The position numbers were made by a program, and so were the translations under genes. Positions 6,381-17,149 of a DNA stretch of 64,000 nucleotides are shown in pieces (the first letter of the stretch is position 1; each line of letters opens with the position of its first letter). Under the pieces are notes generated by a model. It was not told the DNA's origin. It did not search any database and worked only from the letters and a program-made list of their open reading frames with translations. Source of the stretch: a bacterium (lineage in GTDB: Bacteria; RBG-13-61-14; DATKZS01); NCBI GenBank assembly GCA_963674965.2, contig CAXXFL010000007.1:1-64000 (forward strand), given 5' to 3'.

Positions 6381-6409
6381 TTGAAAAATCCCACCCGCCG
6401 TGTTATATT
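6381..6409 (+). promoter_or_regulatory. sigma70-like promoter of tRNA-Lys
   Basis: TTGAAA-17 bp-TATATT with an extended -10 TG. Confidence 0.6.
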
Positions 6410-6471
6410 TAAACAATACGGGAACCGCGAGCGCGGTTCCTTTCTATTTACCGGCCTTTCGCCGGCTCAAA

Positions 6472-6548
6472 GGGCCGTTAGCTCAGTCTGGTAGAGCACC
6501 GGACTTTTAATCCGTTGGTCCGGGGTTCGAATCCCCGACGGCCCGCCA
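6472..6548 (+). tRNA. tRNA-Lys(UUU)
   Basis: GGGCCGT acceptor stem, D-arm GCTCAGTCTGGTAGAGC, anticodon loop CTTTTAA, T-loop GGTTCGAATCC, encoded CCA. Confidence 0.97.
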
Positions 6549-6663
6549 ACATCTTCAAGAAAAATTCTTTTAAATTCAGGCCTTTCAACGAAGGGGCGGT
6601 CCAACCCCCAAGGGGACGCGTCCGCTCAAAAACCCCTTTTTCCGGCCGTTTTTTCAATTTTTC

Positions 6664-6683
6664 TGTCACGTTTTTGTCACGTT
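6664..6683. repeat. Direct repeat TGTCACGTT x2, 11-bp period
   Basis: Copies at 6664-6672 and 6675-6683, just downstream of the tRNA. Confidence 0.6.
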
Positions 6684-6747
6684 ACGATACAGGATTGCAT
6701 ATTTACGGGGGCTTTTGGGTCCCAAAGGAGATGGTATGAATGAAGAG

Positions 6748-6958
6748 TTTTGAGGTGGTAAATACTTCAACTAGGTTAGGAATGATCTATTGGAGTAGGC
6801 GGGTCGTGGGCTGGATCGTTTTCGTGAGGCTTATGACCTCGTAAAGGAGATTAGTCAGCCCCGCGACTGGAGCGCCACCGTAAGGCTAGACCTTGTATAG
6901 GAGTTTGGCGGCCCCTCAAAGCGTGTCTACTCCGACCTTAGATCAAATTTATTTCTAG
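6748..6958 (+). ncRNA. Predicted IS110 bridge RNA, copy 1
   Basis: 5' hairpin 6750-6770. Outer stem 6783-6800/6925-6945 encloses two hairpins whose internal loops match the target and donor sites. Confidence 0.8.
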
Positions 6959-6972
6959 GGAGGAGTAAGGAA

Positions 6973-7989
6973 ATGGGAAGGTACATTGGAATCGATCTGC
7001 ACAGGAATTGTTTCACCTCTTGCGTCCTGGCCGAGAACGGACGGAACTATCTCAAGGACTGGCGTCTCGAGGATTTGGAGAAGTTTTGCTCGACGCTTCG
7101 CGAGTCCGACGAGATCGCGGTTGAGGTCACGGGCAACGTCCGCCTTTTTTACGACGCCGTTCGCGGCCTCGTTTCCCGCGTCGTGGTTGTCAACCCTCGC
7201 CAGTTCAAGGTCATCAGCGAGTCGGTCAACAAAACGGACGGCAACGACGCCAGACGCCTTGCCCTGTTTTTGTCCAAGGGCCTTTTGCCGGAGGTGAGGA
7301 TGCCGAACAAGGAACACGCTCAGGTTAAAAGCCTCACTCAAAGCCGGGACAAGCTGGTGAAGCTTCGCACGGCCTTGAAGAACAAGATCAACAACATCTG
7401 CTCGGCCCACGGCATCAACCTGAAGAAGGAATATCTTTCCAGCGAGAAGGGCCTTGAGACGGTGCAGGAGATACCTTTCGACCCCATGGTCAAGACCGAG
7501 GTCCGCGTCCTGGTGGAGCAGATTCGGGGCTTGAACGCCGGGGTCAAGGAGCTTGAGGCCGCCATCAAGGACTCGGGCAATCAGCTTCCCGGTCACAAGA
7601 ATTTGAAGAGCATAAAGGGTATCGGGGACCTTGGCTCGGCCATACTTTTGTCGGTGATCGTTGACGTCAAGGACTTCCCCGACGAGGGCAAGCTGGCCTC
7701 CTACTTCGGCATCGTCCCCCGGGTTAGCAACTCGAACGAGACCAGCCGCTCGGGCCGGATCACGAAGCGGGGCAACAAACTCGGCCGCACTACCCTGGTC
7801 CAATGCGCCCTCATCGCCAAGCGTTACAGCCCTTATTTGTCGAGCTTCTACGAGCGTATCAAGGCCAGGCGCGGCGCGGGCAAGGCCATCATCGCACTGG
7901 CTCGCAAATTTTTGAAGATCATTTACATCACTTTACAGGAAAACTTGATTTGGGAGGACTTCCCGAACGGAGTAATAGCGAAAGGCTGA
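6973..7989 (+). CDS. IS110-family recombinase/transposase
   Basis: RuvC-like DEDD (GIDLH, AVEVT, KTDGND) and C-terminal Tnp domain (ASYFGIVP..SNS..ITKRGN). Confidence 0.95.
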   Translation: MGRYIGIDLHRNCFTSCVLAENGRNYLKDWRLEDLEKFCSTLRESDEIAVEVTGNVRLFYDAVRGLVSRVVVVNPRQFKVISESVNKTDGNDARRLALFLSKGLLPEVRMPNKEHAQVKSLTQSRDKLVKLRTALKNKINNICSAHGINLKKEYLSSEKGLETVQEIPFDPMVKTEVRVLVEQIRGLNAGVKELEAAIKDSGNQLPGHKNLKSIKGIGDLGSAILLSVIVDVKDFPDEGKLASYFGIVPRVSNSNETSRSGRITKRGNKLGRTTLVQCALIAKRYSPYLSSFYERIKARRGAGKAIIALARKFLKIIYITLQENLIWEDFPNGVIAKG

Positions 7990-8025
7990 GTTTGTAAAAT
8001 AATTCAGCTAATTTAAAAGGTTGGG

Positions 8026-8054
8026 TAGACAACCATCATAGGAGATGGTATGAA
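8026..8054 (+). promoter_or_regulatory. RE-LE junction promoter of IS110
   Basis: TAGACA (right end of copy 1)-17 bp-TATGAA (left end of copy 2), with an extended -10 TG. Confidence 0.6.
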
Positions 8055-8061
8055 TGAAGAG

Positions 8062-8272
8062 TTTTGAGGTGGTAAATACTTCAACTAGGTTAGGAATGAT
8101 CTATTGGAGTAGGCGGGTCGTGGGCTGGATCGTTTTCGTGAGGCTTATGACCTCGTAAAGGAGATTAGTCAGCCCCGCGACTGGAGCGCCACCGTAAGGC
8201 TAGACCTTGTATAGGAGTTTGGCGGCCCCTCAAAGCGTGTCTACTCCGACCTTAGATCAAATTTATTTCTAG
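8062..8272 (+). ncRNA. Predicted IS110 bridge RNA, copy 2
   Basis: Same sequence as copy 1, directly downstream of the junction promoter. Confidence 0.8.
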
Positions 8273-8286
8273 GGAGGAGTAAGGAA

Positions 8287-9303
8287 ATGGGAAGGTACAT
8301 TGGAATCGATCTGCACAGGAATTGTTTCACCTCTTGCGTCCTGGCCGAGAACGGACGGAACTATCTCAAGGACTGGCGTCTCGAGGATTTGGAGAAGTTT
8401 TGCTCGACGCTTCGCGAGTCCGACGAGATCGCGGTTGAGGTCACGGGCAACGTCCGCCTTTTTTACGACGCCGTTCGCGGCCTCGTTTCCCGCGTCGTGG
8501 TTGTCAACCCTCGCCAGTTCAAGGTCATCAGCGAGTCGGTCAACAAAACGGACGGCAACGACGCCAGACGCCTTGCCCTGTTTTTGTCCAAGGGCCTTTT
8601 GCCGGAGGTGAGGATGCCGAACAAGGAACACGCTCAGGTTAAAAGCCTCACTCAAAGCCGGGACAAGCTGGTGAAGCTTCGCACGGCCTTGAAGAACAAG
8701 ATCAACAACATCTGCTCGGCCCACGGCATCAACCTGAAGAAGGAATATCTTTCCAGCGAGAAGGGCCTTGAGACGGTGCAGGAGATACCTTTCGACCCCA
8801 TGGTCAAGACCGAGGTCCGCGTCCTGGTGGAGCAGATTCGGGGCTTGAACGCCGGGGTCAAGGAGCTTGAGGCCGCCATCAAGGACTCGGGCAATCAGCT
8901 TCCCGGTCACAAGAATTTGAAGAGCATAAAGGGTATCGGGGACCTTGGCTCGGCCATACTTTTGTCGGTGATCGTTGACGTCAAGGACTTCCCCGACGAG
9001 GGCAAGCTGGCCTCCTACTTCGGCATCGTCCCCCGGGTTAGCAACTCGAACGAGACCAGCCGCTCGGGCCGGATCACGAAGCGGGGCAACAAACTCGGCC
9101 GCACTACCCTGGTCCAATGCGCCCTCATCGCCAAGCGTTACAGCCCTTATTTGTCGAGCTTCTACGAGCGTATCAAGGCCAGGCGCGGCGCGGGCAAGGC
9201 CATCATCGCGCTGGCTCGCAAATTTTTGAAGATCATTTACATCACTTTACAGGAAAACTTGATTTGGGAGGACTTCCCGAACGGAGTAATAGCGAAAGGC
9301 TGA
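8287..9303 (+). CDS. IS110-family recombinase/transposase (copy 2)
   Basis: Protein identical to 6973..7989. Confidence 0.95.
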   Translation: MGRYIGIDLHRNCFTSCVLAENGRNYLKDWRLEDLEKFCSTLRESDEIAVEVTGNVRLFYDAVRGLVSRVVVVNPRQFKVISESVNKTDGNDARRLALFLSKGLLPEVRMPNKEHAQVKSLTQSRDKLVKLRTALKNKINNICSAHGINLKKEYLSSEKGLETVQEIPFDPMVKTEVRVLVEQIRGLNAGVKELEAAIKDSGNQLPGHKNLKSIKGIGDLGSAILLSVIVDVKDFPDEGKLASYFGIVPRVSNSNETSRSGRITKRGNKLGRTTLVQCALIAKRYSPYLSSFYERIKARRGAGKAIIALARKFLKIIYITLQENLIWEDFPNGVIAKG

Positions 9304-9363
9304 GTTTGTAAAATAATTCAGCTAATTTAAAAGGTTGGGTAGACAACCATCATAGGAGATGAT

Positions 9364-9759
9364 ATGAATACCGGCACTAAATCGCTACTGTTCGGGACTC
9401 ATCAGTTCCTGCTCCATCCTCTTTTCGTGATTGCCGCCTGGAGGCGGCTTTACGGCGACTGGCCGGACGGGCCGACTCTTGTCGCCATCTTTGTCCATGA
9501 CTGGGGTTACTGGGGATGCGAGAAGATGGACGATAAGAAGGGAGAGGAGCACCCGATCAAGGGGGCCAAGATCGTCGAGCGGCTTTTTCCCGACCGGGGC
9601 CTGGGCGAGTTGACTCGGTATCACTCGCGGTTCCTGGCCAGGCGGGAGGGAGCCAGGGTGTCGCGGATGTGTCTGCCCGACAATTATGGCGTGGCCATGT
9701 ATCCCTGCCGGCTATCGACCAAAACCCCGTTAACTCCTCTGTTGCCTTGTTTCGCGTAA
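9364..9759 (+). CDS. HD-like hypothetical protein, possibly phage-derived and 3'-truncated
   Basis: H..H, VHDWGY, EEHP and YHS His pattern. SD AGGAG upstream. C-terminus looks degenerate. Confidence 0.6.
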   Translation: MNTGTKSLLFGTHQFLLHPLFVIAAWRRLYGDWPDGPTLVAIFVHDWGYWGCEKMDDKKGEEHPIKGAKIVERLFPDRGLGELTRYHSRFLARREGARVSRMCLPDNYGVAMYPCRLSTKTPLTPLLPCFA

Positions 9760-9928
9760 GAAGAGATGGAGCTCATGATCTCGAAAGCCGCGAGGATTAT
9801 AATCAAATAAAGGAGGATGAAGGAAAAGTCCCCCACATATCCACGAATCTGTGGAAATAATGCCCGCCTTTTCAAAGGTTCATCACCCATCTTGTATGCT
9901 CCTCGCCTTCAAGCCTTGCGCCGATCTT

Positions 9929-11056
9929 CTACACCCCCCACGATATATCGTCGCTTATTCCAGCGCGCTCCTTAATCAGCCTGGCCACGTTGAATTCTTC
10001 GGGACCAATGAACTCATTTTCAGGTACATGTTTTAATTTGCCGCTGATTTTTATCCAGACCATCTGGCTCCCGTCCGTGAAGAAGGCGGTTATTTCCGAG
10101 GTGGAGTATGATTTGGTCTTGCCCCGGAGGCGGAAGATGTCCGATCTTGTAGATATCTCATCTGGAGATACCTTGACGGTCTCCTTGCCCGCCAAAGCAT
10201 AAGATATATGGTAAATGCCCAAATATAATAACGTGACTCCCGGCGCGCCCAATACAATAATGAATATGCCTGGTCCATAATCGGGATATGTCTCGGCGAA
10301 AAGCGCCGCGCAAAAAGCAACCCAACCAATACCAAACAGGAGACCTAATGAATAGGATAAAATATCCAGCGGTTGCCCTTTTTGAGTTATCGTGATCCTC
10401 GCCTCGTTCCCGTAGTCCGCTACTTCCACCTTGTCTTTGAATTTCCCGATCAACCGAACGAGGGGGCGAAGCGGGATGAAATACTTTTCGTCACTCGCGT
10501 CCGGCGCGCGGTCCGCTATTCCCGTTCTTTGCTTTATGGCGCGGGCTATCTTTATGGCCTCTTCGAAATCAAGGTCCGGCCCGAATAGTCTTGCTTTTCC
10601 CTTTACGGGAAAGAGACGCAACGGTCCGGAAAGATTGTGAGGGGAAGATTGGTTAATAAAGAACAGGCCCAGGAACGATAGCTCCTCGCCCATCCAGGTC
10701 ATGGTCTTTTTATAGAGCAAGGACCGGTTTAAGATACTCAACTTATCTCTCGTCGTCTCGATCGTCTGGCTTCTCGAGAAGTAATGGACGATGAAACCTA
10801 TCGAGGAAACGATCGCAATTATAGATACCGCGCCCGCGATAAAAAGCACCCGGTCTTCATAGACGTTCACCTGGTATAAAGAACCTAGAGTCAAAATAAT
10901 AATCAGAAAGATGCAAAGATGCGCCATGAAAAAGCAAGAAAGCTCGATCGCAAGAGTAAGCAAAGGCAAAAGCCCGATGCTTTTCGGCCTTACCCTGATC
11001 ACCAGTCTCTCGCCGTCGTCCTCGACGCGGGCCTTTGTTTTTGGATTGCTTTTCAT
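9929..11056 (-). CDS. Hypothetical membrane protein, two tandem (2-TM + beta-rich) modules
   Basis: Two hydrophobic pairs, each followed by a similar soluble segment ending FGPDL..A.KIA..IKQRTGI / FIGPEE..VA..IKERAGI. Confidence 0.65.
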   Translation of the reverse strand: MKSNPKTKARVEDDGERLVIRVRPKSIGLLPLLTLAIELSCFFMAHLCIFLIIILTLGSLYQVNVYEDRVLFIAGAVSIIAIVSSIGFIVHYFSRSQTIETTRDKLSILNRSLLYKKTMTWMGEELSFLGLFFINQSSPHNLSGPLRLFPVKGKARLFGPDLDFEEAIKIARAIKQRTGIADRAPDASDEKYFIPLRPLVRLIGKFKDKVEVADYGNEARITITQKGQPLDILSYSLGLLFGIGWVAFCAALFAETYPDYGPGIFIIVLGAPGVTLLYLGIYHISYALAGKETVKVSPDEISTRSDIFRLRGKTKSYSTSEITAFFTDGSQMVWIKISGKLKHVPENEFIGPEEFNVARLIKERAGISDDISWGV

Positions 11057-11213
11057 CTCGATTATGGGCGAGGAGGCGAAACCGAAGGCCGCGCCTCGTC
11101 GCCGGGCTAAATTACCTTCTACCTTGTGGACTTATAATTATCATAGACGCTTATGGAATGTAAAACGGATTATGGGCCGCTTGGCTTCCTGATTTGCCGT
11201 TTTTCGGATTCGC

Positions 11214-17101: not shown

Positions 17102-17149
17102 TTCTTAACCCGTTATTTTGCAATTATTTTTCATGAAAGGAGATAAAGG

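Follow-up and report, generated by a model that had tools for sequence, protein, structure and literature searches.

An IS110-family element whose guide RNA appears to read the Shine-Dalgarno consensus and to leave a Shine-Dalgarno word at both of its junctions

The DNA analyzed here is a stretch of 64,000 nucleotides (hereafter the window), comprising positions 1 to 64,000 of the forward strand of contig CAXXFL010000007.1 (GenBank assembly GCA_963674965.2) from a bacterium of the GTDB lineage RBG-13-61-14; DATKZS01. Its subject is an IS110-family mobile element located between a promoter-like sequence and the start codon of a short open reading frame (ORF). A preliminary description of the window, made from its letters and predicted reading frames, had proposed that the element targets a Shine-Dalgarno (SD) site and that its right end then supplies a replacement SD for the downstream gene. 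Read along the plus strand, the upstream context of the insertion site begins with a tRNA-Lys(UUU) gene at positions 6472-6548 (ARAGORN; Rfam tRNA score of 72 bits). The 177 nucleotides (nt) between this gene and the element contain a promoter-like site at 6674-6703 (TTGTCA, 18 nt, CATATT), identified by consensus match only and situated about 20 nt upstream of the targeted SD. The element itself spans 6726-9353 and is followed by the 131-amino-acid (aa) frame termed ORF 9364 (9364-9759, plus strand).

Comparison of the assembled sequence with itself at a fixed period reveals that 6726-9353 consists of two head-to-tail copies of one 1314-bp unit, such that 6726-8047 and 8040-9361 are identical save for a single base (A at 7896, G at 9210). 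Copy A (6726-8039, plus strand, 1314 bp including one AGGAG) carries the allele that is common to six other copies found by blastn of the genome, whereas copy B (8040-9353, plus strand) carries the allele common to two others. Both alleles of the dimer therefore recur elsewhere, A in seven and G in three of the ten genomic copies. Each copy is composed of a 247-nt left non-coding end (6726-6972 in copy A), a 338-aa transposase ORF (6973-7989 in copy A and 8287-9303 in copy B, both on the plus strand) and a right end of 50 nt. A search for terminal inverted repeats was negative, as none of the 16 inverted pairs detected joins both ends of the element. Where the two copies meet (8026-8055), the right end of one and the left end of the other form TAGACA (8026-8031), 17 nt that include AGGAG (8040-8044), and TATGAAT (8049-8055). 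This arrangement, a candidate junction promoter, is identical to what the junction of a circular form would read, and it holds exactly one AGGAG, between ..CATCAT and ATGG...

The two copies encode the same transposase protein, which has 10 matches at 100% identity. Its N-terminal RuvC-like DEDD domain is recognized by Pfam model PF01548 (E 2.5e-15) and its C-terminal transposase domain, which contains the catalytic serine, by PF02371 (E 1.6e-21). In addition, the protein scores 221.5 bits against the NCBIfam equivalog "IS110 family RNA-guided transposase", for which the cut-off is 140. Residues D8, E51, D89, D92 and S213 are invariant among 27 homologues, with S213 lying in the segment S-I-K-G-I-G. 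The IS621 and ISCro4 transposases of known structure (PDB) are distant matches (E 6.6e-13); the acidic residues align with the YIGID and TDxxD motifs of IS621, and the segment containing S213 aligns with SIPGIG.

The left non-coding end has an organization resembling that of a bridge RNA, with a 5' hairpin, a basal stem, a target loop and a donor loop, and it folds at -92.9 kcal/mol (z -4.32). A consensus structure derived from an alignment of 42 left ends comprises six helices, namely the 5' hairpin, the basal stem, and an outer stem and inner hairpin for each of the two loops. In this model 97.1% of the cells are paired, compared with at most 48.7% when the partners are slid out of register, and 15 pairs exhibit compensatory changes. 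Both guide words are located directly after the inner hairpin, on the 3' side of their respective loops. The RNA of the first internal loop carries AAAGGAGAU, matching the target, and the corresponding target guide AAAGGAGAT lies at 6843-6851 in copy A and 8157-8165 in copy B (plus strand). In the second internal loop, the donor guide ATAGGAG (6897-6903 and 8211-8217, plus strand) consists of the two terminal bases of the right end plus AGGAG. A k-mer comparison of the left end with the joined ends returned just these two core 7-mers plus 7-mers at the level expected by chance. One of the latter, TGTCTAC, was rejected as a guide because it is part of the basal stem. An Rfam search of 6400-9900 at E<=1 yielded tRNA and chance hits only, with no bridge-RNA family among them.

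The letters at both junctions bear directly on the proposal that the element is aimed at an SD. On the left, host DNA ends ..CCCAA at 6725 and AGGAG follows at 6726-6730, so that the junction (6724-6730) reads AAAGGAG. Together with the first two bases of the element it becomes AAAGGAGAT, which by its letters re-forms, after insertion, a sequence that matches the target guide over its whole length. On the right, positions 9352-9372 read ATAGGAGATGATATGAATACC, in which TAGGAG (9353-9358) is followed by a 5-nt spacer and by ATG AAT ACC from 9364. The layout AGGAG-ATGAT-ATG AAT ACC given in the preliminary description is therefore present, with AGGAG (9354-9358) in the SD position for ORF 9364. 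At this junction the base two positions before AGGAG has changed from host A to element T. We infer that the empty site contained a single AAAGGAG, the same 5-nt spacer and the ATG. The promoter-like site at 6674-6703 is presumed to be the host promoter of ORF 9364, now reading into the element. As a separate observation, 9359-9369 resembles the element's own first bases, with 15 of 16 bases from AGGAG on being identical; this resemblance is not seen at the other eight sites described below.

ORF 9364 belongs to a real gene family, a point that the preliminary description had left to be checked. The family is conserved but lacks a Pfam model, and the ORF itself matched no Pfam or NCBIfam family, but a large protein collection contains 201 homologues, with E values down to 3e-45. 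Nine aligned homologues all open with M-x-x-G-T-K-S-L-L-F-G, as does ORF 9364, and because they share the same N-terminus, the ATG at 9364 is confirmed as the start codon of the family. The claim that the gene keeps its translation start stands at the level of sequence only. The homologues are mostly 170-200 residues long, and tblastn similarity to ORF 9364 stops at about residue 117 of 131, near window position 9714, which indicates that the C-terminus is aberrant or truncated. A search of other frames up to position 11200 did not recover the missing C-terminal part, and ORF 9364 was not found in the four other genomes of the source family.

The preliminary description had also called for the flanks of all genomic and homologous copies to be collected, and these data extend the pattern well beyond the window. 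The 6.5-Mb assembly contains 10 full copies at nine sites, plus one 46-nt left-end fragment (blastn). At all nine sites the left host DNA ends in AA and is followed by AGGAG, while on the right AGGAG and host DNA come after the element's last bases, ..CAACCATCAT. At seven of these sites an ATG located 5-8 nt past the right AGGAG opens a frame of 93-354 codons, and at all seven the transposase and the downstream gene lie on the same strand, as had been noted for the window. Five of these seven ORFs carry Pfam domains that begin at residues 1-34 (ATP synthase c, DUF4190/zinc ribbon, cytidylate-kinase-like, nitronate monooxygenase (NMO), and zinc-dependent alcohol dehydrogenase (Zn-ADH)). The remaining two are ORF 9364 and a 162-aa ORF at C6:284240 for which no Pfam or NCBIfam family was found.

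To judge these numbers, one must consider how often the targeted word lies at a gene start in this genome. AAAGGAG occurs 2049 times, and 390 of these occurrences (19%) are followed at a distance of 4-10 nt by a start codon that opens at least 80 codons, the criterion used here for a gene start. For control 7-mers of equal composition the fraction is 6-13%. Seven or more gene starts among nine sites would arise at the 19% rate with a binomial probability of 2.3e-4; the observed pattern therefore exceeds chance. The suggestion that the SD word offers an abundant, low-damage target is supported.

Read depth provides a further check on copy number. In two metagenome runs that contain the window, contigs made of the element body have depths of 178 and 159 compared with approximately 16 for the flanks, which fits about ten copies. 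One of the copies stands immediately before the gene for ATP synthase subunit c (atpE; C6:276944-277225, minus strand, with the occupied site at C6:277236), and this placement raises the question of polarity on an essential operon. A third metagenome run includes a contig from a relative that joins the atpE side to the upstream side without any element. Because its 32 diverged letters abut a single AGGAG, we regard this contig as the orthologous empty site.

Relatives of the element permit the correspondence between guides and junctions to be examined across many different sequences. A one-genome-per-species collection and 13 genomes of the phylum contained no close relatives (one match at 29% identity, none outside the element's own genome). 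A protein collection yielded 4456 homologues at E<=1e-30 among 8000 scored candidates; among the homologues listed, identities are 67-86% and most reside on contigs about the size of an element. A scan of metagenome contigs then gave 80 loci with transposases 62-85% identical to that of the window. For 61 of these 80, both the left flank and the target guide can be read, with left ends located by their conserved ATG..ATGAAT start and thus independently of the flank. The target guide equals the left flank over all seven bases in 50 of the 61 loci. The guide is a word other than AAAGGAG in 23 loci, of which 20 have the same word in the flank. The alternative guides are TAAGGAG, GAAGGAG, CAAGGAG, AGAGGAG, GGAGGAG and CACAGAG, the last of which is found in both guide and flank of locus L046 and is not an SD. 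When guides and flanks were paired at random, the mean number of matches was 21.8 and the maximum 33, with none of 10,000 shuffles reaching 50, although this test overstates the independence of the loci because the relatives are phylogenetically related.

On the donor side, 55 of 56 loci have a guide identical to the 7-mer of the right end, a count that is biased by the way right ends were located, namely with a pattern requiring ..TCAT followed by (A/G)GG(A/G)G. In loci L098 and L101, where the right end reads ..CATGGGAG, the donor loop is likewise ATGGGAG. The AGGAG word is present at 66 of the 69 right ends called in relatives, and T(A/T/G)GACA at all 69, as the search pattern required. Within the target guide, the first position varies freely while AAGGAG is kept in 62 of 70 guides read, which argues that the SD word itself is maintained. 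The two bases after the target guide are AU in 69 of 70 sequences, and the first two bases of the element are AT in 59 of 62. Because the AU that follows the guide corresponds to the element's own first bases, the guide matches the left-junction product of insertion over nine bases.

Gene starts are also common beside these relatives. Distinct right flanks with a length of 25 nt or more number 54, and in 44 of them an ATG, GTG or TTG located 3-13 nt after AGGAG opens a frame of at least 40 codons or one that stays open to the end of the sequence, and the spacing peaks at 5-7 nt. The restoration of AGGAG by the right end at unchanged spacing, first proposed for the window alone, thus holds for all genomic copies and for the relatives. 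A more distant example is carried by a plasmid of a cultured Tardibacter (NZ_CP018225.1; 49.8% identity), in which flank and guide are both GAAGGAG and the right end reads ..CATCATAGGAG, with the start codon ATG of a ParB_N gene after a further 7 nt. This element starts with CT, and its guide continues with CU.

Based on the anatomy of the element, the flanks of all its copies, the covariation of guides with flanks and right ends in relatives, and the RNA structure, all of which were read directly, we consider it highly probable that this is a bridge-RNA-guided element of the IS110 family whose target guide reads the SD consensus and whose crossover falls within AGGAG, and that this holds across the clade. 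In the mechanism we propose, the first-loop word AAAGGAG(AU) has the sequence of the target top strand and would pair with the target bottom strand. The second-loop word AUAGGAG has the sequence of the last bases of the right end (..CAT AGGAG) and would pair with the donor bottom strand. The joined ends of the element would then recombine with the target by crossing over inside the common AGGAG. The exchange is placed within this word because the base before it is host A at the left junction and element T at the right junction, and the bases after it swap type correspondingly. One AGGAG would be left at each junction, the left being composed of host AAAGGAG plus the element and the right reading ..CATAGGAG, after which the host spacer and start codon would follow at an unchanged distance. 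Since an SD is asymmetric, an element inserted in this way would always be co-oriented with the gene.

Such an arrangement may also determine how the element and its neighbor are expressed. Host transcription probably reads through the element, given the promoter-like site upstream and a 50-nt right end in which no plus-strand terminator was found. The downstream gene would then be co-transcribed and translated from the restored SD. The joined ends (TAGACA or TTGACA, 17 nt, TATGAAT) may form a promoter of their own, as predicted from their letters. A promoter scan of the region did not call this junction promoter and returned the host site at 6674-6703 as its sole promoter-like match. Junction promoters and circles have been described for the IS110 family (PMC11187229), and bridge-RNA guides are described as pairing with opposite strands and including the core (PMC11208160). 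The dimer would most simply have arisen when another copy inserted at the left junction of one already present, because this junction constitutes a complete target and because the two alleles both recur elsewhere.

Several results do not sit easily with this account, in addition to the relatedness of the loci and the search pattern mentioned above. The guide and flank differ in 11 of the 61 readable pairs, nine by one mismatch, one by two and one by six. A guide for the right half of the target was sought and no convincing one was found, as the 5' side of the target loop is variable and lacks a clear complement to the right flanks. Pairing between a U-rich 5' strand and purine-rich spacers is one conceivable form of right-hand recognition. 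Two of the nine genomic sites (C2:65271 and C3:20591) are not at gene starts. Specifically, the copy at C2:65271-66584 lies in the same orientation inside an open frame of at least 1448 codons, two pieces of which (about 500 aa each) matched no Pfam or NCBIfam family, and the copy at C3:20591 precedes an ORF of merely nine codons. Likewise, 10 of the 54 right flanks of relatives do not pass the start-codon test. In several of these 10, a second GGAGG word and an ATG stand a short distance beyond, or the right end is duplicated and then AGGAG and an ATG come after it. In the search for additional guide positions, the two bases next to the donor guide agreed with those that open the right flank in just 8 of 52 cases. 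Column 187 of the alignment contains U in nine of nine sequences whose left end begins ATGA and C in 29 of 33 others. This column also pairs in the outer stem of the donor loop, and its role as a right-donor (top-strand donor-loop) guide is tentative.

It is possible, though less likely than not, that the guide directs insertion at any AAAGGAG and that the excess at gene starts arises afterwards by survival rather than as a property of recombination. No guide for a start codon or spacer was found, spacings range over 3-10 nt, one copy (that on C2) lies within a long open frame, and 81% of the AAAGGAG sites in the genome are off gene starts, with none of the rest occupied. IS900 provides a similar case, with 51 sites outside coding sequences and only three disrupted genes (PMC8141618). 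Such a scheme is compatible with RNA-guided recognition of AAAGGAG and calls into question only where the excess comes from. That 62 of 70 guides keep AAGGAG despite a variable first position argues that the SD word has been selected. Standing copies cannot separate insertion preference from survival, and we infer that the guide and the loss of harmful insertions both contribute to the excess. Another argument in the preliminary description was that an unoccupied match upstream of groES is consistent with a need for a right-hand guide. The match itself exists, with AAAGGAGAT at 17136-17144 (plus strand, outside the element) preceding AAAGG and the start codon ATG of the Cpn10 gene, and it is indeed unoccupied and continues with AAA, but the need for a right guide is not supported. 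The empty groES site is uninformative because the other eight occupied sites have unrelated right flanks and because an unoccupied AAAGGAG is the rule. In the window alone there are 22 such words, of which 19 are further unoccupied sites once the left junction and the two internal guide copies are removed.

The remaining alternatives concern the boundaries and the number of the copies. An AGGAG direct repeat flanks every copy, as it would if AGGAG were a 5-bp target-site duplication, the element ran from ATGGTATG to ..CATCAT, and the AGGAG in the loops were coincidental. We find this very improbable. The same word is present at nine of nine sites and at 66 of 69 right ends in relatives, the dimer junction retains exactly one AGGAG, and the donor loop ATAGGAG spans the right end plus the word, with loop and right end both shifting to ATGGGAG in L098 and L101. 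Moreover, IS110-family elements are reported to lack target duplications (PMC8141618, PMC11187229). It is also unlikely, if less so, that the dimer is an assembly artifact and that the site holds a single element. Short-read contigs cannot span 1.3 kb, and among the contigs listed for the two runs that contain the window, none crosses from a right end into a left end. However, the copies differ at 7896 (A) and 9210 (G), with both alleles found elsewhere, in seven and three copies, and the third run includes a contig of the right-end/left-end junction that goes back 1314 (depth 4.27), which could derive from a circle or from a dimer. Whether one or two copies reside at the site, the finding at 9352-9372 is unchanged.

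Returning to the SD-reading guide, we tentatively propose a broader interpretation that we hold with noticeably less confidence than the recognition of the word itself. In this proposal, the clade, a widespread one, would have fixed a programmable guide on the SD word, so that nearly any gene start in an SD-using host could serve as a landing site. With the SD rebuilt on both sides, the element would become an extra cistron of a host transcription unit without silencing the next gene. Its RNA would be organized unlike that of IS621, each loop having one dominant bottom-strand guide of 7-9 nt on its 3' side, with a right-hand target guide scarcely developed or absent and a common word of 5 nt. 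Finally, the left junction would re-form the target and thereby seed tandem arrays.

A number of additional features of the element and its relatives deserve mention. Left ends share an invariant ATGAAT at their start, 5 nt past the host SD (window 8049-8066 and relatives), and its ATG opens a frame of 2-5 codons in the window element (ATG AAT GAA GAG TTT TGA) and in several relatives. This sequence may serve as a -10-like element, as a site at which the donor is recognized, or as a mini-ORF at whose end ribosomes coming from the host SD are released. Each copy also contains a minus-strand terminator-like hairpin with a T-run in its right end (9333-9348 and 8019-8034), which by its letters would keep antisense transcription from entering the element. 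The antisense strand also has an open frame of 282 codons (8269-9117), which reaches neither end of the element. Among the relatives L024-L103, the right non-coding ends fall into classes of approximately 40-55 nt, as in the window element, and approximately 230-410 nt. The longer class carries GC-rich structured inserts, and all classes keep the terminal T(A/T)GACA..CATAGGAG. The terminal 16 nt of the right end occur four times in tandem in L032 (downstream of 2111) and twice in L088 (downstream of 2502), and L029 (265-400) contains a duplication of about 45 nt of its left end. These end duplications may be footprints of repeated or offset recombination.

Other observations concern the surroundings of the copies. 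The solitary 46-nt left-end piece is located at C6:1074153-1074198 (minus strand), after a tRNA-Leu(UAA) gene, and the leader of approximately 170 nt between that gene and the piece is 78-83% identical to window positions 6549-6725. To judge from the letters, the piece looks like a paralogous site that was once occupied and from which most of the element was later lost. The leader common to the two tRNA genes may represent the edge of related integrated elements. In the right flank of the C3 copy (C3:20548-20590), a motif of about 16 nt, TAAGTATGCTGTCCCC, occurs twice, about 30 nt apart, and may be the end of another repeat or mobile element. Downstream of ORF 9364, the neighboring minus-strand ORF (9929-11056, 375 aa) has no Pfam family.

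Bridge-RNA recombinases are under development as programmable tools for genome writing, and their natural targets show what a given RNA layout can and cannot specify. The clade described here would offer a natural guide held on a universal, short and abundant 7-nt word, with apparently little right-hand specificity and with the function of the disrupted signal seemingly preserved by design. It poses three questions, namely how the host is spared, how tandem copies are formed, and whether a one-sided guide is sufficient. For annotation, it would explain elements that sit between promoters and start codons, including the copy before atpE, and it predicts polar rather than null effects of such insertions.

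In its known layout, IS621 places the bottom-strand guide on the 5' side of the loop. The window element has clear guides (7-9 nt) only on the 3' sides of its loops, shares a 5-nt AGGAG with its target, and has no evident right-hand guides. IS621, by contrast, targets repetitive extragenic palindromic (REP) elements and has a CT core and clear left and right guides in each loop (PMC11208158). The two systems are alike in combining DEDD and serine recombinase domains, in having an upstream non-coding RNA with a target loop and a donor loop, and in possessing guides that include the common core (Durrant et al. 2024 and Hiraizumi et al. 2024; PMC11208160, PMC11208158). A likeness also exists to the seekRNAs of ISEc21 and the IS1111 type, for which Siddiquee et al. 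2024 describe a non-coding region that sets the target, natural re-programming, and a circle that makes a junction promoter (PMC11187229). Unlike IS1111 elements, the window element has its non-coding region upstream (247 nt on the left and 50 nt on the right) and no subterminal repeats, while many relatives have right ends of 230-410 nt. The order of strand matches, with the bottom-strand match located 3', resembles the IS1111 type, a tentative comparison that depends on the tentative top-strand guide of the donor loop. The clade of the 338-aa transposase appears not to be represented among the solved or named elements compared.

The closest precedent for the target is IS900 of Mycobacterium avium subsp. 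paratuberculosis, and IS901, IS902 and IS1110 behave like IS900. We found no literature tying bridge or seek RNAs, or the IS110 family, to SD targets except for IS900, although the supplementary tables of natural targets in PMC11208160 may list some. IS900 belongs to the IS110 family, lacks inverted repeats and target duplications, and inserts in a fixed orientation at translation starts, mostly outside coding sequences (PMC8141618). Relative to the transposase strand, the motif it targets, CATGNNNNNNTCTCCTT, corresponds to an SD and start codon in reverse complement, and its antisense ORF (hed) is thought to depend on host signals (PMC8141618). The preliminary description had stated correctly that the IS900 transposase is antisense to the host gene (PMC8141618), whereas by comparison with this published description the window element is co-oriented. 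The IS900 motif places the start codon at a fixed spacing, whereas the spacing in the window clade is 5-8 nt in the genome and 3-10 nt in relatives, and the C2 copy has no nearby start codon, so that there is no fixed requirement for one. The SD-reading guide would offer a mechanistic interpretation of the SD-type motif at which IS900 inserts (PMC8141618). Although IS110 insertion at translation starts was already known from that element, the system described here would add co-orientation with the gene, freedom from a fixed start codon, a distinct clade, and a crossover within the SD that rebuilds the word on both sides.

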